Virus record (IMG/VR): IMGVR_UViG_3300008448_000122 | Location: 1-52,269 of that record | Length of the DNA stretch: 52,269 bases | Origin: a virus | Lineage: Duplodnaviria > Caudoviricetes | Direction: 5' to 3' (one strand) | Shown: piece by piece, positions 1-7,032 of the stretch | Position numbering within the stretch: the first letter of the stretch is position 1 | How the letters are laid out: each line of letters begins with the position of its first letter | The notes under the pieces: model-generated | Databases searched by the model: none | What the model saw: only the letters and a program-made list of their open reading frames with translations | Told to the model about the DNA's origin: nothing | Translations under genes and position numbers: made by a program

Positions 1-5
1 TTGGA

Positions 6-112
6 ACAGCAAAGTCGAAAAACTTTGGATCGTCGTAACCTATTGAAAACACTAGACTTGGGGCTTTTGGGGCCCCCGGCCCGAATCTAAGTCCTTTATT
101 TACAAGGGGTTA
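6..112. repeat. Early-region intergenic element copy 1: two inverted 25-bp boxes (36-60, 88-112) around a GC-rich core
   Basis: acagcaaagtc-gaaaaactttggatcgtcgtaacc...cactagacttggg matches 658-715 and 1754-1799; box 88-112 (taagtcctttatttacaaggggtta) is an inverted relative of box 689-713. Confidence 0.9.
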
Positions 113-373
113 GGGCAGCTTGAGATCTTCCTTGAGGATGTGCTTAATGTGGATCCTCGCCTGAAATACCGAACGTTCGGCCACCCGCAGTTCGTGCTGT
201 AGGGTGGCGTAGAGTTGCCCACGGTCGAAATCATTCAGGAAGGGCCGCGCAAGCGACGTTAGGCTGTGGAGGTAGCCGACGCGGCTGTATTCTTCCAGCT
301 TTTGCTCCACATCTTCCAAGAGATTGTGAAGTGCCTCAAACGAGGCGAGATTGTGCTTCTTATCGTTTTCCAT
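110..373 (-). CDS. Hypothetical early protein (87 aa, MENDKKHNL...)
   Basis: ATG at 373 lies 1 nt after the TAA of the upstream ORF (TAA-C-ATG); the longer 451 start would overlap that ORF. Confidence 0.7.
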   Translation of the reverse strand: MENDKKHNLASFEALHNLLEDVEQKLEEYSRVGYLHSLTSLARPFLNDFDRGQLYATLQHELRVAERSVFQARIHIKHILKEDLKLP

Positions 374-374
374 G

Positions 375-623
375 TTAGCAATCGTCCGTGTAGGTGTTGA
401 GGTAGGGGTCGTAGCCGTTGTCGGAAACATCGTAGAAGCCTTCGGCGGCAAAGCCGATGGTCTCGTTGATCGTTTCGATGATGAAGTCGATGCCCACTTC
501 CTGGTTGTAATCCAACAGCAGCAGAGCCTGGATCGCGTGCGGGTTGTCGGCTTCGGCTTCCGACAGGGTTTCCATGTAGTTGAGGATCGCGTCCTTGATC
601 TGCTCGGTGTCCATGTGGTTCAT
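375..623 (-). CDS. Hypothetical acidic early protein (MNHMDTEQ...), probably leaderless
   Basis: ATG at 623 lies 7 nt downstream of TATAAT (631-636, minus strand); the 689 start falls inside the repeat. Confidence 0.75.
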   Translation of the reverse strand: MNHMDTEQIKDAILNYMETLSEAEADNPHAIQALLLLDYNQEVGIDFIIETINETIGFAAEGFYDVSDNGYDPYLNTYTDDC

Positions 624-630
624 GCGGTGG

Positions 631-658
631 ATTATAGCGTCTGAGTTTCTGGCATCTA
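631..658 (-). promoter_or_regulatory. Sigma70-like promoter TAGATG-N16-TATAAT-N7-ATG
   Basis: Same geometry as four other promoters in the first 3 kb; the -35 box is the weakest of the set. Confidence 0.7.
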
Positions 659-766
659 CAGCAAAGTCCGAAAAGTTTGGCATCGTCATAACCCCTTGTA
701 AACACTAGACTTGGGATCGGGCCGGGGGCCCCAAACTTACCCAACCCCTTATGTTTCAAGGGGTTA
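658..766. repeat. Early-region intergenic element copy 2 (boxes 689-713 and 742-766, core inverted relative to copy 1)
   Basis: 670-715 is identical over 46 bp to 1754-1799; the core tcgggccgggggccccaa is the reverse complement of the copy 1 core ttggggcccccggcccga. Confidence 0.92.
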
Positions 767-768
767 TG

Positions 769-975
769 TCACTTCACCTTGCATTCCTTCTGTTTCATTT
801 CCTCGCACCATTCGTTGAAGCACATCTTGCAATATCCTGCATAGGTGCGCGCCCACGGGCCGATCTTGCATTCCTTGCACTTCAACGGGCCTTCCGTCTT
901 TTCGTCCCGAATCAAGGGGAAGATCAACGACATGGCGGACTGTGGGGGAGACTTGAGCTTGCGATGGGTTCTCAT
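769..975 (-). CDS. Small CxxC...CxxC putative zinc-binding protein
   Basis: CKEC and CKMC motifs; TAA-C-ATG coupling to the upstream ORF. Confidence 0.7.
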   Translation of the reverse strand: MRTHRKLKSPPQSAMSLIFPLIRDEKTEGPLKCKECKIGPWARTYAGYCKMCFNEWCEEMKQKECKVK

Positions 976-976
976 G

Positions 977-1078
977 TTAGAAAGGCGTGCTAAGGTAGCC
1001 TACAACGACGATGAAAACAAGGGCGCACATGGCGATATAGAACAGGACCGCCAGCGTCAGGTTAGCTTTCTTTTCCAT
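977..1078 (-). CDS. 33-aa single-pass membrane peptide MEKKANLTLAVLFYIAMCALVFIVVVGYLSTPF (not in the ORF track)
   Basis: Translated by hand; ATG lies 7 nt after TATACT; one hydrophobic stretch; fills the gap exactly. Confidence 0.75.
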   Translation of the reverse strand: MEKKANLTLAVLFYIAMCALVFIVVVGYLSTPF

Positions 1079-1085
1079 GGCTCGG

Positions 1086-1113
1086 AGTATAGCGTTAGAG
1101 GTTTAGGATTCAA
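1086..1113 (-). promoter_or_regulatory. Sigma70-like promoter TTGAAT-N16-TATACT-N7-ATG
   Basis: Read directly on the minus strand; close duplicate of 1441-1468. Confidence 0.8.
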
Positions 1114-1433
1114 TCCCCAATATCGAATGCATCGAATGCTGGGTTGCTAAGATCCCACACCATCTCATCCGATTGGATCGTGAGACCATCCCACATATCC
1201 TTGGGGAGCAGAGATTCTTCCCAACATTCTTGAAAGTTCTTGATGGTCTCTTCATCCGCCATCGAACCATCGGCCAGGAAGATTTCCTCGATCCAAGGGT
1301 AATCGTCGTTAGGGGTGAAGCAAAGGCGGAACTTCGTCACCTTCGGCATATCGTACTTGACCCATTCCAGCAAGTATTCCTTGCGAATCGCCCATTCTTG
1401 CTGGGCCGTCAGGAACTCCGGGTTGATCTTCAT
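1110..1433 (-). CDS. Hypothetical acidic early protein (107 aa)
   Basis: ORF with ATG 7 nt after TATACT. Confidence 0.75.
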   Translation of the reverse strand: MKINPEFLTAQQEWAIRKEYLLEWVKYDMPKVTKFRLCFTPNDDYPWIEEIFLADGSMADEETIKNFQECWEESLLPKDMWDGLTIQSDEMVWDLSNPAFDAFDIGD

Positions 1434-1440
1434 GCTTCGT

Positions 1441-1468
1441 AGTATAGGGTCAGAGTTTTAGGATTCAA
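1441..1468 (-). promoter_or_regulatory. Sigma70-like promoter TTGAAT-N16-TATACT-N7-ATG
   Basis: Read directly on the minus strand. Confidence 0.8.
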
Positions 1469-1476
1469 GCCTATTT

Positions 1477-1707
1477 TCAGTAGGCTTCCGAGCAACCTTC
1501 CCAGTTACCCTCTTCCCATTCCTGGGCCTCATCCTGGGCGACGATCCAATCGGCCATCGCATCGTGGAAAGATTGGAGCACGAATGCAACATACTGCTCG
1601 GTGCATTCGATCCCGTGCTTAATCCACATCACACCCACGATATCGTTCTCCGTAAGATCGGGGTGATCCGCCGCGACGTTCAGGACCAACGTTTCCTTCG
1701 TGCTCAT
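1477..1707 (-). CDS. Hypothetical acidic early protein (MSTKETLV...)
   Basis: ATG at 1707 lies 7 nt after TATACT; the 1773 start falls inside the repeat. Confidence 0.72.
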   Translation of the reverse strand: MSTKETLVLNVAADHPDLTENDIVGVMWIKHGIECTEQYVAFVLQSFHDAMADWIVAQDEAQEWEEGNWEGCSEAY

Positions 1708-1714
1708 GCGGGGG

Positions 1715-1742
1715 AGTATAGGGTCTGAGTTTCTGGGGGCAA
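1715..1742 (-). promoter_or_regulatory. Sigma70-like promoter TTGCCC-N16-TATACT-N7-ATG
   Basis: Read directly on the minus strand; spacer resembles that of 637-652. Confidence 0.78.
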
Positions 1743-1815
1743 CACTAAAAGCAGAAAAGTTTGGCATCGTCATAACCCCTTGTAAACACTAGACTTGGGG
1801 AGCTTGGGGCCCCCT
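1742..1815. repeat. Early-region intergenic element copy 3 (half element: box 1773-1797 plus partial core)
   Basis: 46 bp identical to copy 2; core ttggggccccc in the copy 1 orientation; no second box. Confidence 0.88.
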
Positions 1816-1838
1816 CGAAAGTATCCAATAGGATTTTG

Positions 1839-1957
1839 CGGGTCCCATATGGAACGATGCGTCATCTCCACCACACATCCTCAGGACCCATAGATCTACC
1901 CCACAACAAATTTAATAGGAATCTCAAAAAATCTCAACGGGTCCCATCGGGTCCCAT
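1839..1957. repeat. Cluster of CGGGTCCCAT direct repeats
   Basis: cgggtcccat at 1839-1848, 1938-1947 and 1948-1957; variant ggacccata at 1884-1892. Confidence 0.85.
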
Positions 1958-1959
1958 AG

Positions 1960-2208
1960 TCACATATTTTGATCTAATAGTTTCAAAATATCCAACCAAG
2001 TTTCCTTAGTCTTGAAATAGACTTCCATGGTGGTAGCTCCCCCCTTATCGTTCATGAGATAGATATCCAATCCATATAGGTTTTCATCATCCTTATATGC
2101 ATAGTATCCCTTGAAGTCTAGTTGGTTAAAAGTAAACATCACATAACCATCGACATATACTTTAATGCGACCGTTATGTGTAGTAAACTTATAGGATCTC
2201 TTTCTCAT
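1960..2208 (-). CDS. Hypothetical protein (82 aa)
   Basis: ORF with ATGA overlap to the upstream gene. Confidence 0.75.
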   Translation of the reverse strand: MRKRSYKFTTHNGRIKVYVDGYVMFTFNQLDFKGYYAYKDDENLYGLDIYLMNDKGGATTMEVYFKTKETWLDILKLLDQNM

Positions 2209-2450
2209 GGTTCAAAGGAGATGCTAACGTCGTTTAGAAGATCTTTTTGATCAATCATCCACTCTCCGAAGATTTCTCTAGCTTCTCCGGTTGAAAAGGA
2301 GACTGCGATCTTATCCACACCATTTTGATATGCATATGAAGCGACCATCATGATATCATTATTTGGGGCATGAGAGAACATTTGACCAGCCTTGAGGTCA
2401 TTGACCGCAATTTTAGTATCTCCCGTCTTTGCACTAATAGTAATTTTCAT
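2205..2450 (-). CDS. Hypothetical protein (81 aa)
   Basis: ORF with ATGA overlaps at both ends. Confidence 0.75.
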   Translation of the reverse strand: MKITISAKTGDTKIAVNDLKAGQMFSHAPNNDIMMVASYAYQNGVDKIAVSFSTGEAREIFGEWMIDQKDLLNDVSISFEP

Positions 2451-2575
2451 TGTACGAATTCCTTCATTATCTTATACATCATAACTACGACTAAAGACCA
2501 TAGGATGAACAGTACTACACCGTTCACTGTGGGCTTTAAGATTTTCTCGATAAACAGTTCACGATCCGAGTTCAT
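2447..2575 (-). CDS. 42-aa membrane peptide MNSDRELFIEKILKPTVNGVVLFILWSLVVVMMYKIMKEFVQ (not in the ORF track)
   Basis: Translated by hand; one hydrophobic segment; its TGA overlaps the next ATG. Confidence 0.7.
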   Translation of the reverse strand: MNSDRELFIEKILKPTVNGVVLFILWSLVVVMMYKIMKEFVQ

Positions 2576-2939
2576 TTTCTAGTTCCTCTTCAATATCCTT
2601 CCAAATTGTGATTCCATCGTAGTAGACGAAGTTCATATCTGCGCTGCAAGCGGTATAATTTACTTCAATGGCTACGATTTGATTTCCCTTGTAGTTGATT
2701 TCCTTTGGATCGAAGACATCGGTGATCCTAACAATGTATCCCATGGTTGAGATATAATCGCCCGCAGTCTTCTTTCTATCTTGGACGAGACTATTGATGG
2801 ATTCAAAGATTCGGTCACAGATATACTTCTTCTTGGTGCCAGGATAATCTGCTGGCATGAAAGGGTACTTGTTCCTTTCGGCAATAAGATTAACTACCTC
2901 AAGAAGTCCCTCAAGGTCGAAGGATGCGATTCTGTTCAT
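2559..2939 (-). CDS. Hypothetical protein (126 aa)
   Basis: ORF preceded by a promoter with N7 spacing to ATG. Confidence 0.75.
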   Translation of the reverse strand: MNRIASFDLEGLLEVVNLIAERNKYPFMPADYPGTKKKYICDRIFESINSLVQDRKKTAGDYISTMGYIVRITDVFDPKEINYKGNQIVAIEVNYTACSADMNFVYYDGITIWKDIEEELENELGS

Positions 2940-2946
2940 AGCGTCT

Positions 2947-2974
2947 GTTATAGCTCAGACGGTCCAGGGATCAA
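2947..2974 (-). promoter_or_regulatory. Sigma70-like promoter TTGATC-N16-TATAAC-N7-ATG
   Basis: Same geometry as the promoters in 631-1742. Confidence 0.7.
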
Positions 2975-3177
2975 GGCTTTTTCTTATCTTTATCATGAGG
3001 CTCTTCTATCCAGTAGATTTTGCCTCCAAAGCTATTGTAAAGCCATTCGTCTGGGTGAGGTGGTGGCGTGTAATGGCCTTTACCTTTATCATTACAATCC
3101 AAACAGCCTTCAACTTGAGGACCCCAAACTTTTCCACACTTGGGACATTCCCAACCAACATTTTTATTAGTCTTCAT
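2971..3177 (-). CDS. Small zinc-ribbon protein (GWECPKCG...CLDC)
   Basis: Two CxxC motifs; start uncertain (3177, 3183 or 3204). Confidence 0.7.
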   Translation of the reverse strand: MKTNKNVGWECPKCGKVWGPQVEGCLDCNDKGKGHYTPPPHPDEWLYNSFGGKIYWIEEPHDKDKKKP

Positions 3178-3364
3178 ACTCATTAAATATATCGAACAAA
3201 TCAATTATAGCCCTGTCGATCAATTCGATTCTTTCATTTAAGATTTCTAACTTTGAGTTGGGTATTTTAGTTCTATCTATTGATTCGGCCAGAGTCGCTA
3301 AAGTCTTTATTGAGAACTCAGTGTTTCTAATATCTGAGTAGAGATCATTGTGGTTTATTTTCAT
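3167..3364 (-). CDS. Hypothetical protein (65 aa, helical)
   Basis: ORF overlapping both neighbours in operon fashion. Confidence 0.65.
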   Translation of the reverse strand: MKINHNDLYSDIRNTEFSIKTLATLAESIDRTKIPNSKLEILNERIELIDRAIIDLFDIFNEYED

Positions 3365-3905
3365 TTTTAACTTCTTCCAATACCATCCAAGTGCCTAAAA
3401 ATCCTAAGTTAGTGGATTCCCTCATGATCGGAAAAGCTCTTCCTCTAACTTTTGTTGTCTCTAAGGTATATACGTTTTGAACCTTGAACTCGGTTTCAAA
3501 CTTTCTGTGATCTCTTACTGATTCTGACCATTCTTTAACTACTCTGCTCATATCATCTGGGTGGATGAAGGATACCCATCCTAGGTCTTTTAGATCTTCT
3601 AATCCGCCTCCAACTAGCCTTGCCATCGCAGTATTGACCCAAATAAACTTACCATGTTCGTCTGCTTTGAATAGTGGCTTTTGAGTTAGGTGTTGGCTAG
3701 CCTCGATAAATAATGCTAAGTTTGTTACTGAGGCTTCTATCCTATCCATCTGGTCTTTTAAAGTTGACCCGCCATTATTTTTTGTTTCGTGCAATATTGC
3801 TTTTAACTTTCGATTTCCAAAAGCTAGCATTAAGGCCACTAGGGTTCCTACTGATGCAAGTACTTCATGCCAGGGAATTAAATGCCAAAAGTTAGTAGTC
3901 TCCAT
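3345..3905 (-). CDS. Membrane-anchored PAS-domain protein (candidate holin or lysis regulator)
   Basis: N-terminal hydrophobic helix, short coiled coil, then PAS/PAC signature (DEHGKFIWVN.AM..L.G...EDL...GW..FIHPDD). The holin role is inference. Confidence 0.8.
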   Translation of the reverse strand: METTNFWHLIPWHEVLASVGTLVALMLAFGNRKLKAILHETKNNGGSTLKDQMDRIEASVTNLALFIEASQHLTQKPLFKADEHGKFIWVNTAMARLVGGGLEDLKDLGWVSFIHPDDMSRVVKEWSESVRDHRKFETEFKVQNVYTLETTKVRGRAFPIMRESTNLGFLGTWMVLEEVKNENKPQ

Positions 3906-3911
3906 AAATCG

Positions 3912-3933
3912 TATCCTTCTATAAGGATATTTA
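3912..3933 (-). promoter_or_regulatory. Late promoter TAAATA overlapping a hairpin that sequesters the Shine-Dalgarno sequence
   Basis: Minus strand reads cTAAATAtccttatagAAGGAtacgatttATG; stem TATCCTT/AAGGATA. Confidence 0.65.
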
Positions 3934-3950
3934 GTTTTCGGAGTCTACGT

Positions 3951-4301
3951 CTATGGGATATGTTTAATCCCATCTACATTTCTTATTACATTATAAGCTA
4001 TAGCCTTAAAAGGTTTATCGGATTGGTGGTCGTTAATTAAAATCCGCTTTCCCTGTCCGATACCCATAATAAGCATATCGTATATAACTCCTGCTGCACT
4101 TAATTGTTCTTCCGTGAGCTTCCTGGTTGATTCTGGGCGGGCTGTAGTAAGAATAATCATATGGCCTTCACAGTGCCATTTAGCCGTATTCTCCCGCGCG
4201 CCTGGAAGAGCTTTTAATACTTTGCAATTGGTGATGTCTGCAAAGTTATCAATATGTTCGATAAGTGTGCCATCAATATCTACAAAGTAAGTGTTTCTCA
4301 T
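3951..4301 (-). CDS. HAD-superfamily phosphatase (small, capless type)
   Basis: Motif I FVDIDGTL, motif II LTTARP, YDMLIMG...RILIND. Confidence 0.88.
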   Translation of the reverse strand: MRNTYFVDIDGTLIEHIDNFADITNCKVLKALPGARENTAKWHCEGHMIILTTARPESTRKLTEEQLSAAGVIYDMLIMGIGQGKRILINDHQSDKPFKAIAYNVIRNVDGIKHIP

Positions 4302-4325
4302 ATAAATACTTATAGGAGGTGCTTT

Positions 4326-4385
4326 ATGCTACTAAAACTAGATTTTGGACTGAAGGCGAATGGACCATGCGCCAATGGGTGTTGA
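4326..4385 (+). CDS. Possible 19-aa peptide MLLKLDFGLKANGPCANGC
   Basis: TATAAATA at 4301-4308 and AGGAGG 6 nt before ATG; very short and may be non-coding. Confidence 0.35.
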   Translation: MLLKLDFGLKANGPCANGC

Positions 4386-4409
4386 CTACATACCCATAGG
4401 AGGTTTGCC

Positions 4410-4736
4410 TCACTTGCCAACCATTTTATTTGCGATTGAAAGGTAAATTAGCCAGCAGACACAGCTTCCAAGTGAGCCATTAAATAGCATATCAAAAACT
4501 ATTTGATAGGGCCACATCTGCTTAAGTAAAAAATACTCTGCTGGGCTCCAGACTAATAGTCCCCACATTAGTCCCACCCAGAAGCCCATGCAGAGTATAC
4601 AATTCACAAGCTTTCCAAAGAATGGTATCTTAGCAAGAGCCAATCTAACGGGCTTGAAAATCGTTGAGTATACGACGATGTTAGCGGCTCCGAAAGTCGC
4701 TAGTGACCAGATAATAAAATTAGTTAGGTAATCCAT
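4410..4736 (-). CDS. DUF1360-like membrane protein
   Basis: Three hydrophobic segments; IF.P.R...GKLVNCILCMGFWVG pattern. Confidence 0.7.
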   Translation of the reverse strand: MDYLTNFIIWSLATFGAANIVVYSTIFKPVRLALAKIPFFGKLVNCILCMGFWVGLMWGLLVWSPAEYFLLKQMWPYQIVFDMLFNGSLGSCVCWLIYLSIANKMVGK

Positions 4737-5460
4737 GTGTCTTGTTGTGAATCAAAATTATTGGTAGCTGGCTTCTATGAGTCTTTACAAACTCATCTTT
4801 AGCCTTATACCATTCCTGTCTCATCTCGCCTGGAGATTCGTGCCTAATAATTATAGGCACTGCATAGTTAGAATAACCAAGTAAGTGTGCTTTGCTGGTC
4901 ATATGTATATCGTAAAAATCCCAAGGACCAGATAAGTATGACGGTTGTTTTAGTGTTATTGCTTTTAAGATTTTATAGGAGCAGGCTAAGAAGCAACCGT
5001 CTAAGCAAACCACTTGCCCATAAGGACCAAAATAATTTGGGGTCATGAAGACCTCATCTTGGCCTTGGAAAACGAATCCTCTGGAGGCTCCTAAATGTCT
5101 TGCGTTCCACCAAGCTCCATTGATTTTATTTGCGTCGTAGTAGGTAGATCCTGCCACTCCTACAAATCCTACATTTGGCTTCAAGCAGATTTGTAGTAGT
5201 CTCTCAAACTCGTGATGGTTGGTCATGATCTGAATGTCATCATGGCACATCACTATAATATCATTATCCTCTAACTTAGTCTCAATCTGAATCCAGTCTA
5301 AGTTTTGGGTATGTCCCTGATATATTGAAGGAGCATCGTAAGCTATAGCAATTCTCATATCTATATGAGATGAAGCTTTGTTTACATAATCCTTAATACT
5401 AGATAAGGATTTAGACTCTTTATTCAATCTACTACATATAGACAGGATAATTTTAGACAT
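4720..5460 (-). CDS. GT-A fold glycosyltransferase (family 2-like, StrF-type)
   Basis: IIVMCHDDI, GFVGVAGS, VVCLDGCFLA, WDFYDIH, IRHES motifs; start placed at 5460 to avoid overlapping terL. Confidence 0.82.
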   Translation of the reverse strand: MSKIILSICSRLNKESKSLSSIKDYVNKASSHIDMRIAIAYDAPSIYQGHTQNLDWIQIETKLEDNDIIVMCHDDIQIMTNHHEFERLLQICLKPNVGFVGVAGSTYYDANKINGAWWNARHLGASRGFVFQGQDEVFMTPNYFGPYGQVVCLDGCFLACSYKILKAITLKQPSYLSGPWDFYDIHMTSKAHLLGYSNYAVPIIIRHESPGEMRQEWYKAKDEFVKTHRSQLPIILIHNKTHGLPN

Positions 5461-7032
5461 ATGAAAAGTAATAGCCTGACGCTTGACGAAATTAAAGAAG
5501 AATTTCTTAAATGTAAAACTGATGCGGTATACTTCATATCTAAGTACATAAAAGTTTCCCACCCTAAAAGAGGGTTAGTAAACTTTGAACTTTACCCTTT
5601 CCAAAGAACAATAATTAAAGAGTTCTTTACACACAGATTTAATATACTTAGAAAGTTTAGACAAGCTGGTTGTACTACATTGATTGCTGCTTATTCTTTG
5701 TGGCTTTGTATGTTTAATCCTTACAAGACTGTGGCTATTCTGTCTAAAGGCGAGGCTGAGTCCACAGAAATTATTGATCGTATTAAATTGATGCACGCTG
5801 AACTTCCTGCTTGGTTACAACCTAAGATTATGGAAGACAACAAGCATACATTCAAGCTAGAGAACAAATCAGTAATCAAGTCTAAGGCTTCGGGAAAGCA
5901 ATCAGGTAGATCTATTCCTGGATCATTGTTGATCTTGGACGAAGCTGCATTCATTGAGCACATTGATACAATTTGGGCTGCTGCTTATCCAATCATTTCT
6001 ACTGGTGGATCTGTAATTGCTCTTTCAACTGTAAATGGTATTGGTAATTGGTTTCACAAGATGTATACTCAAGCTATCAATGGAGAAAACAATTTTAATG
6101 CAATTGATATTACTTGGAAGGAACATCCAGAATACTTTAGACAATCAGGGTATGAGCATCTATATGAATTGATGGCAAAGTATGAACCACCAGTCAATAT
6201 TGATGATTGGGAGAAGAATACTAGGGCTAACCTAAGCTTGAAAGAATGGTTGCAGGAATATGAAGCTAACTTCCTAGGAACTGGTGAAACTTACATTGAC
6301 GGTGAGATCCTAAGGCAGTTAAAGAGTGACGTAAATCGTGAATACAGAATCAAATACAATAATCGTATGCGCGTGTGGAAGGATCCTCAACCGTACCACG
6401 AATATGTATTAGCTTGTGATCCGTCAATAGGCCGAGAAAGAGATTATTCAGCCTTCCATGTTATTGATCTTTATAATGGGGAGCAAGTAGCAGAGTTTTA
6501 TTCGAACCGTACCCCAATCAACGAATTTGCTAAAATTATTGTAGACGAGGGCAGACTTTATAATACGGCTTATGTTCTGAGCGAAAGAAACGGTATTGGA
6601 AATAATTTAATTTATTTCTTACAAGAAAGTTTAGAGTATGAAAATCTAGTTATGGACGATAACCGTGAGATCGGTATGCAGATCACCCAGAAGAATAGGG
6701 AGGTCTTGTTGGCCGACATGGAGCATAATATAAGATCAAATAAAGTTAAAATTAACTCAGAAAGGCTAGTTGACGAGCTATTAACCTTTGTTATTGATAA
6801 AGATACCAATAAAATTAAAGCTGATACTAACTGCCATGATGACTTAATTATGGCTTTTGCTATGGCAATTAATACTTTTAATAAATTAAGAGAAAATAAC
6901 TTAATTGAAAGAGATACTTTAATTGATAACAGGAATATCCCACTTACCCCTATGCAGTCATATAAATATAAAGTAGTTACTGCTACTGGTAATGTAACCC
7001 TGGAAGATTATAAATGGCTAATAGGCAAATAA
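5461..7032 (+). CDS. terL: Terminase large subunit (T4 gp17-like)
   Basis: FELYPFQ adenine-binding motif, RKFRQAGCTT Walker A, LLILDEAAFI Walker B, ST.NG coupling motif, nuclease acidic motifs ACDPS.G and HDDLIMA. Confidence 0.97.
   Translation: MKSNSLTLDEIKEEFLKCKTDAVYFISKYIKVSHPKRGLVNFELYPFQRTIIKEFFTHRFNILRKFRQAGCTTLIAAYSLWLCMFNPYKTVAILSKGEAESTEIIDRIKLMHAELPAWLQPKIMEDNKHTFKLENKSVIKSKASGKQSGRSIPGSLLILDEAAFIEHIDTIWAAAYPIISTGGSVIALSTVNGIGNWFHKMYTQAINGENNFNAIDITWKEHPEYFRQSGYEHLYELMAKYEPPVNIDDWEKNTRANLSLKEWLQEYEANFLGTGETYIDGEILRQLKSDVNREYRIKYNNRMRVWKDPQPYHEYVLACDPSIGRERDYSAFHVIDLYNGEQVAEFYSNRTPINEFAKIIVDEGRLYNTAYVLSERNGIGNNLIYFLQESLEYENLVMDDNREIGMQITQKNREVLLADMEHNIRSNKVKINSERLVDELLTFVIDKDTNKIKADTNCHDDLIMAFAMAINTFNKLRENNLIERDTLIDNRNIPLTPMQSYKYKVVTATGNVTLEDYKWLIGK

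Follow-up and report, generated by a model that had tools for sequence, protein, structure and literature searches.

Probable stem-loop-plus-promoter modules in a GC-rich early-gene array of a very distant T4-like phage

The DNA discussed here is an entire linear IMG/VR contig (IMGVR_UViG_3300008448_000122; Caudoviricetes) of 52,269 bases with an estimated completeness of 44%, and in the following this whole stretch is referred to as the window. Its bases 1-1815 contain three copies of an intergenic element (36-112, 689-768, and 1773-1815), in which quasi-palindromic boxes adjoin a G/C core, and these are the sole copies in the 52-kb contig. The elements are likely to be the stem-loop halves of stem-loop-plus-promoter modules that punctuate a hyperplastic, GC-rich array of early genes. 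As such, they would represent a variant, without a Shine-Dalgarno sequence, of the promoter/stem-loop cassettes (PeSLs) of T4-type phages. PeSLs have been described as strong sigma-70-like promoters that come with upstream AT-rich sequence as well as a start codon and a Shine-Dalgarno sequence (PMC2839356, PMC4122927), where the stem-loop precedes the promoter and often reads polyG followed by polyC (PMC2839356). They are reported from the phages RB49/phi1, PST/T4, and nt-1/KVP40, in which they are clustered in hyperplastic regions and mediate indels and the formation of mini-circles (PMC2839356, PMC4122927).

Several features of the window agree with this assignment. The predicted proteins match the Pfam families Portal_T4 (E 4e-80), Terminase_6N/6C, UvsW_N, and T4_baseplate as well as a gp6-like protein and a primase family, which identifies the genome, as predicted from its genes, as that of a T4-type myovirus. 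The nearest portal protein in a cultured-phage comparison with 50,697 phage records is 33% identical, and the phage is thus a very distant T4-like myovirus. All genes between 5562 and 1 are carried by the minus strand (referred to as the gene strand), and the G+C content of bases 1 to ~1850 is 49-52% compared to 27-45% in the remaining window. The elements are concentrated in this hyperplastic region among variable ORFans, as are PeSLs, and none of the six open reading frames (ORFs A to F) in the array of the window is matched by Pfam or PHROGs. Moreover, blastn with window 1-1900 gave no match among the 50,697 phage records.

Anatomy of the elements and the predicted promoters

The elements and the promoters associated with them are as follows, where all positions refer to the window.

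36-112, minus strand: element copy 1, with the stop-side box at 112-87 (which holds the TAA of ORF F), the core at 61-87, and the promoter-side box at 60-36
1-35, minus strand: T-rich spacer and start of the -35 hexamer after copy 1; the remainder of this promoter and its gene are in the metagenome contig L214, 2445-2866
689-768, minus strand: element copy 2, with two boxes and the core at 714-741 in orientation B
621-658, minus strand: predicted promoter after copy 2, with -10 TATAAT at 631-636, a weak -35 at 653-658, and the ATG at 621-623, 7 nucleotides (nt) downstream
1773-1815, minus strand: element copy 3, with one box, that of the promoter side, and an orientation-A core; the stop-side box is missing
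1705-1742, minus strand: predicted promoter after copy 3, TTGCCC-16-TATACT, with the -10 at 1715-1720 and the ATG at 1705-1707, 7 nt on
1076-1113, minus strand: predicted promoter without stem-loop, TTGAAT-16-TATACT, with the -10 at 1086-1091 and the ATG at 1076-1078, 7 nt on
1431-1468, minus strand: predicted promoter without stem-loop, TTGAAT-16-TATACT, with the -10 at 1441-1446 and the ATG at 1431-1433, 7 nt on

The sequence CACTAGACTTGGG is present exactly three times in the 52,269 bases, at 50, 703, and 1787. Allowing at most three mismatches, the box TAACCCCTTGTAAA is found at 36 (plus), 99 (minus), 689 (plus), 753 (minus), and 1773 (plus); the other 8 of the 13 matches, each with three mismatches, look like chance hits. 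A direct repeat of 109 nt with 83% identity includes a stretch of exactly 46 bases, 670-715 and 1754-1799, in which there is no difference. Read along the gene strand, copy 1 has the core GGGGGCCCCAA, which is referred to as orientation A, and copy 2 the core TTGGGGCCCCC (orientation B). The cores thus read GGGGGCCCC or GGGGCCCCC, i.e., polyG then polyC. Copy 3, which has the core orientation of copy 1, is the first element of the array and is preceded by a non-coding junction region and not by a gene. The stop codon of the ORF at 110-373 (minus strand) occupies positions 110-112, within the box, and that of the ORF at 769-975 (minus strand) is at 769-771, 2 nt from the box. A preliminary description of this DNA, made from the sequence alone, had reported the three copies, the 46 shared bases, the missing second box of copy 3 and the placing of the two stop codons, all of which were confirmed. 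It had also described the boxes as inverted 25-bp repeats. The boxes are real, but each 25-nt box is itself a quasi-palindrome composed of TAACCCCTT, an A/T-rich stretch, and AAGGrsTTA, and the two boxes therefore serve equally well as direct repeats or as inverted repeats. On the gene strand, the order of the parts is stop codon, quasi-palindromic box, polyG/polyC core, second box (which carries a short U-rich run), T-rich spacer, promoter, and ATG.

The promoter-plus-ATG repeat is present in four copies in the array, three of which are called by a generic promoter scan. When TATAMT-N6-8-ATG followed by an ORF of at least 30 amino acids (aa) was looked for on both strands, four instances were found in the whole window, all of them in the array. 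In 14 oriented loci, which are not all independent, TTGnnn-N15-18-TAnnnT-N5-9-ATG gave 23 units distributed over 12 loci, with a spacing to the ATG of exactly 7 nt in 21 of the 23. Promoters had initially been noted after copies 2 and 3, and these two stand; copy 1, however, has one as well. The first bases of the window lie within the -35 hexamer of this promoter, and L214, which is 100% identical to window 1-2444 and extends 422 nt beyond it, reveals that copy 1 is likewise followed by such a promoter and then by further genes. The predicted promoters carry sigma-70-like -35 and -10 elements with a 16-nt spacer, in keeping with the ~17 nt between these elements in PeSLs. With the ATG 7 nt past the -10 hexamer, transcripts would begin with the A of the ATG or right beside it, and we infer that the array cassettes give rise to leaderless mRNA devoid of a Shine-Dalgarno sequence. 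Neither leader space nor a purine-rich motif is present between the -10 and the ATG of the array units. A Shine-Dalgarno-like sequence precedes hardly any of the 31 gene starts in the window, and the host is probably not reliant on Shine-Dalgarno pairing.

Recurrence of the module, cassette exchange, and core orientation

Scanning metagenome contigs with a 20-nt box pattern gave nine loci in six contigs (L213 to L215 are one contig, L214, and L218 is part of the L219 contig). L216 carries two elements and L219 carries four, which provides six close copies in addition to those in the window, while in the remaining three contigs the match hardly extends beyond the 20-nt pattern. The nine close copies align over ~145 nt, from the stop codon to the ATG, with a mean column identity of 73%. 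The -10 hexamer is TATAMT in 9/9 and the ATG is positioned at 7 nt in 8/9, and in 5/9 the stop codon is supplied by the box.

Homologous members of the element family are present in relatives with 67-76% identical terminases (as judged for loci where a terminase match was listed). In these relatives, the start of the array is marked by the following feature.

1839-1863, strand not assigned: conserved 25-nt junction motif at the border between the AT-rich module and the GC-rich array

This motif (pattern CGGGWCYCNNATGSAACGATGCGTC) is present in 13 viral-contig loci of the terminase group and, past it, arrays of this type are found in all relatives. In G001 (91 kb, estimated to be 77% complete), which is one of the relatives, a 6.7-kb GC-rich array (L212, reverse strand, 1-6700) has eight such promoters and five conserved box-core-box stem-loops, plus a sixth. 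The window-type copies have a T-rich spacer and the G001-type copies an A-run. The terminase of G001 is ~67% identical to that of the window, and in both phages the G+C content is about 50-55% in the early array and 27-45% elsewhere. The junction motif itself is surrounded by GGGWCCC or GGAGTCCC repeats (window 1839-1863 and 1865-1960), several contigs stop within tens of bases of it, and it may be an operator or an assembly-breaking repeat. In L122, the junction region (900-1000) has approximately four tandem copies of an A-rich unit of ~20 nt.

Other scans were less productive. Searching the viral contigs with a 14-mer gave 114 single matches, the best of which agrees with the element at 35 of 66 bases, and these were set aside as chance; the viral-contig scan with the promoter-side box gave no match (the record of the window itself was possibly excluded). 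In bacterial genomes, the box 20-mer scan detected no full element but scattered single hits, some of which are ordinary terminator hairpins, and it provided no clue to the host. In a Candidatus Poribacteria chromosome (L224 and ~20 other loci), a near-identical multi-copy repeat starts with the stop-side box 20-mer TAACCCCTTGTAAATAAAGG. This 20-mer overlaps an apparent -35 hexamer there, and the repeat is probably unrelated or the end of an insertion sequence.

The elements coincide with positions where homology between related sequences begins or ends. The window and L216 share DNA homology from the ATG of ORF D (74% identical at the aa level) through the stop-side box, and past this box, the core and the second box of L216 differ and its downstream gene is unrelated. 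Element a in L219 (58-138) shares 90% identity with copy 1 across 81 nt, and the genes on both of its sides are unrelated to those in the window; homology begins exactly at the TAA and ends after the second box. Comparison of ten arrays showed that the order of the F2, F3, F5, and F8-F12 gene families differs between arrays. In L210, for example, a block including F2 is inserted between F11 and F12, which adjoin in G001, and the inserted block terminates at a stem-loop-plus-promoter element. Many related contigs end within the array. Hence, on the evidence of these alignments, junctions of indels and replacements are found at the modules, as they are in PeSLs, and the proposal in the preliminary description of an exchangeable array of small early genes agrees with the reordered families and with the breaks in homology at the elements. 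A joint of another kind was noted in L122, whose terminase is 76% identical to that of the window. Window 362-411 and L122 299-348 are 86% identical over 50 nt, a stretch in which ORF E (...YTDDC) ends with its final codons and ORF F begins, and the remainder of both genes is, by eye, unrelated. This mosaic joint lies within genes and not at an element.

The core was initially reported as flipped between copies 1 and 2, and this holds. Positions 66-112 and 689-735 are 85% complementary over 47 nt, and the local alignment score of the two cores is 8 in direct orientation vs 19 for the reverse complement, a value reached by 0 of 2000 shuffles (shuffle maximum 12). The flip covers the 25-nt G/C core of copy 2, which is the reverse complement of the copy 1 core. 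For the flanking boxes of these two copies, a hand count gave 43/53 matches in direct and 38/53 in inverted orientation, and since the boxes match slightly better as direct sequences, a flip restricted to the core is the most economical description. Both orientations recur among the nine close copies, where four have orientation A (window copies 1 and 3, L219a, and L216a), three have orientation B (window copy 2, L219b, and L219c), and two have other G/C cores. In L219c, boxes and core are inverted together, resulting in the full reverse complement of the copy-1-type hairpin with the stop-to-promoter frame kept. The end-points of the inversion thus vary, comprising the core only in two copies and the whole hairpin in one. 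The two-fold symmetry of the boxes would have made such a flip possible. The predicted structure is unaltered by the inversion, and a small hairpin is retained. The flipped piece, ~25 nt of G/C hairpin, carries neither a gene nor a promoter. Overall, the best reading of the flipped core is that of a small inversion associated with the hairpin, or of gene conversion between copies of opposite orientation, and we do not read it as a regulated switch.

Short inversions of this kind have counterparts elsewhere. Kelchner and Wendel in 1996 reportedly described minute hairpin-loop inversions in non-coding chloroplast DNA, arising without a recombinase. As in the present array, a short spacer between inverted repeats is there in either orientation in copies that are otherwise collinear, whereas the copies discussed here are paralogous, belong to a phage array and in one case have inverted stems as well. 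Parvovirus terminal hairpins exist as flip and flop isomers, which rolling-hairpin replication generates through hairpin transfer at the ends of the genome. In both systems, the inner part of a palindrome is present in two coexisting orientations, but the phage elements are internal, intergenic, and tied to promoters.

Sequencing runs provided a further view of the locus. At least 78% of the words sampled from window 1-1900 are present in each of 15 runs, which belong to 12 studies, and one of these runs is possibly the source of the contig; 14 are labeled freshwater or lake water and one is labeled fungus metagenome. The runs compared in detail were X2 and X4 (assembled contigs), X16 (RNA), and X24 (raw reads, which gave 0 reads). 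Between them, the assembled contigs from X2 and X4 span all of this stretch, with breaks at the elements. At the loose ends at 103 and 742, other cores are joined to the same gene flanks, and sequences matching the L219 elements are also present. An opposite-strand joint between 689 and 1778 was seen in the assembled contigs of both runs, and a joint going back from 1814 to 43 in one of them. These joints could correspond to other element copies, to palindrome or mapping artefacts, or to real inverted or circular forms; as both lie in repeated, palindromic sequence, they are indistinguishable from other copies or artefacts. The assembled contigs thus neither show nor exclude mixed core orientation at a single locus.

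Function of the module and rival explanations

In the proposed explanation, the stem-loop would terminate or attenuate the upstream transcript, or stabilize its 3′ end, after which the host-type sigma-70 promoter would restart transcription. Each cassette would as a result be insulated from its neighbours. The modules are the sole sequence common to otherwise unrelated cassettes, and for this reason they would probably act as homology patches for phage general recombination, by which cassettes are shuffled, inserted, and deleted, a role that has been proposed for PeSLs as well. The likeness to PeSLs suggested in the preliminary description is retained on the basis of the T4-like genome and of a polyG/polyC stem-loop located directly upstream of a sigma-70-type early promoter. 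Other shared features are the clustering in a hyperplastic region between small ORFans and the indel and replacement junctions at the modules. The elements differ from PeSLs in that two 25-nt quasi-palindromic boxes flank the stem-loop, with the upstream stop codon often in the first box, and in that the core, or the whole hairpin, is present in either orientation. Moreover, the G+C content of the array markedly exceeds that of the remaining genome, and the phage is far from cultured T4-type phages.

Folding of the elements is in part consistent with a structured RNA. The minus strand of copy 2, as RNA, has a predicted free energy of -47.3 kcal/mol (z = -5.0). In a 20-copy alignment, 75% of the cells pair in each of two schemes vs 23-51% after sliding of the partner column. 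The covariation signal is modest, as between 4 and 25 of 500 shuffles attain the values observed with the different measures and pairing schemes; in the nested scheme there are 24 double-sided cells, reached by 4/500 shuffles.

A number of observations weigh against PeSL-like terminating modules. The cassettes have no Shine-Dalgarno sequence, the ATG being 7 nt past the -10, and in this they differ from PeSLs. Copy 1 folds no better on the gene strand than shuffled sequence (z = +0.40). RNAalifold returned no pairs and no consensus structure for the 20-copy alignment, which leaves the exact fold unsettled, and the long-range and local pairing schemes fit about equally well. The stem-loops do not have the form of canonical intrinsic terminators; a simple terminator scan called none of the three window elements, and the short U-run does not directly adjoin the G/C stem. 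Conservation of the boxes extends to their primary sequence and is not limited to the ability to pair, such that they could be bound by a protein. In the RNA run X16, three 35-nt pieces with <90% identity were recovered and not counted as expression. The three records closest to the window by terminase identity (L119, L120, and L121) end before the array, and the breakpoint evidence is thus supplied by two short metagenome contigs together with relatives at a greater distance. Finally, the two records searched for recombinases, the window (44%) and G001 (77%), are both incomplete.

The conserved box sequence raises the possibility that a dimeric regulator of the early promoters, encoded by the phage or the host, uses the boxes as DNA operators, with the hairpin as a by-product of palindromic sites. 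In line with this idea, TAAsyCCTT ... AAGsrsTTA is retained across lineages with 67-76% identical terminases, many pair columns are invariant, and a third arm (TTAyGAC) is conserved upstream of the promoter. Yet the distance between box and -35 is ~45 nt in one sub-family vs ~31 nt in another, the promoters at 1076 and 1431 have no boxes, and the element is always directly after a stop codon, as expected for a 3′-end signal. Together with the double-sided changes that keep pairs (24 cells, reached by 4/500 shuffles), this makes an operator function unlikely. It has also to be considered whether the stem-loops, instead of being terminators, are processing or stability sites of RNase III or RNase E type in a read-through early transcript. 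The hairpin is long and imperfect with internal loops, the U-tract is weak, the terminator scan is silent, and the pairing allows a three-hairpin fold as well as one long hairpin. On the other hand, the downstream genes each have their own predicted promoter, and processing would thus be unneeded for their expression, and a PeSL stem-loop tested in a reporter is reported to have been an effective terminator (PMC2839356). We therefore find a processing role quite improbable.

The preliminary description went further and took the elements to be dedicated recombination or inversion sites comparable to integron attC sites. Boxes serving as sites of a dedicated recombinase or invertase, attC-like or of Hin/Gin type, which captures cassettes and flips the core, would agree with the sharp edges of the element (L219 58-138 vs copy 1, from the TAA to after the second box), with the stop codon provided by the box in five of the nine close copies, and with the recurrence of both core orientations. 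In addition, the authors of the PeSL work speculate on a protein recognizing the GGGG...CCCC stem (PMC2839356). As with attC, there is an imperfect palindrome at the 3′ end of the cassette that abuts or overlaps the stop codon, and the small genes form exchangeable arrays. However, PF00589 (Phage_integrase) matched neither of the two records searched (the window, 44% complete, and G001, 77%) but all 14 control genomes, and PF00239 (Resolvase) likewise matched 0/2 of these incomplete records and 12/14 controls. By eye, the boxes have no GTTRRRY core, and no IntI-type integrase was found in the window or G001. Integron cassettes are promoterless, whereas every cassette here has its own predicted promoter and resides in a lytic-type T4-like phage, and the attC analogy is thus not supported. 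With respect to Hin/Gin/Fim switches, no invertase was matched in the window or G001, and the ~25 nt inverted hold no promoter or gene end and keep a small hairpin after inversion. The end-points of the inversion are also inconsistent (core only in two copies, whole hairpin in one), and an independent contig is 100% identical over 2444 bases in the same orientation. A dedicated recombinase is on these grounds highly improbable. Very unlikely, too, is a related possibility, that the double-box hairpins are structure-specific recombination sites, as cruciforms or single-strand hairpins, for a phage junction- or hairpin-processing enzyme encoded outside the recovered 44% of the genome. If this were true, a hairpin-processing enzyme would flip cores and move leaderless, promoter-bearing cassettes, amounting to integron-like capture without an integrase in a lytic T4-like phage.

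A discrete unit of ~80 nt with inverted ends and several copies, present in both orientations relative to its flanks (L219 element c), also resembles a miniature mobile element of the miniature inverted-repeat transposable element (MITE) or repetitive extragenic palindromic (REP) type, with terminal inverted repeats and spread by transposition. Copies 1 and 2 are, though, without a visible target-site duplication, and in the window and the first 7 kb of G001 the copies are confined to the early array, between a stop codon and a promoter. The 20-mer scan of bacterial genomes gave no full-element copies, and no transposase is in view. An origin of this kind is extremely unlikely.

If the elements are indeed PeSL-like modules, PeSL-type cassettes reach beyond the T4-type phages of enterobacteria, Vibrio, and Yersinia to a very distant freshwater lineage, which occurs in 11 studies besides the possible source. 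Stem-loop-plus-promoter modules would then be a general T4-like means of keeping exchangeable, insulated early genes. The leaderless design of each cassette would be new for this class and has a bearing on translation start in the host; a literature search judged from titles found no description of leaderless PeSL-type cassettes. A hairpin core, or a whole hairpin, in both orientations would be new for the class as well, and it constitutes a natural test of orientation-independence.

Genes of the array and neighbouring features

The small genes of the array in the window are the following.

1477-1707, minus strand: ORF A, 76 aa counted from the promoter-proximal ATG
1110-1433, minus strand: ORF B, 107 aa; blank in Pfam and PHROGs
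977-1078, minus strand: ORF C, 33 aa, hydrophobic; partial homologue in L216
769-975, minus strand: ORF D, 68 aa, cysteine-rich; 74% identical to an ORF in L216
375-623, minus strand: ORF E, 82 aa from the promoter-proximal ATG
110-373, minus strand: ORF F, 87 aa; its start is 1 nt past the stop codon of ORF E (375-377) and its stop codon is within the box of copy 1

Longer reading frames that start inside a box were considered and rejected. A 98-aa version of ORF A starting at 1773 is unlikely to be real, as its start falls within the box, and the box-internal starts of this type (MTMPNFS..., from 689 and 1773) have an ATG in 2/9 close copies; copy 1 has ACG. A search for relatives seeded with ORF B found none. 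The proteins encoded by related arrays include DUF932 and GP88. Searching Rfam with window 1-2500 gave just a sub-threshold SmY match (E 0.26).

Outside the array, a canonical terminator-like hairpin with a T-run is positioned at 1935-1949 (minus strand), after the last gene of the AT-rich module (1960-2208) and before the junction region. The window also encodes a 186-aa protein with a PAS domain (3345-3905, minus strand; PAS_3, E 1e-8), for which a search for relatives gave one contig, 77% identical, that ends before the array. L120, with a 91% identical terminase, is without window 2579-2933, which carries an ORF at 2559-2939, and hence reveals an indel within the AT-rich module.

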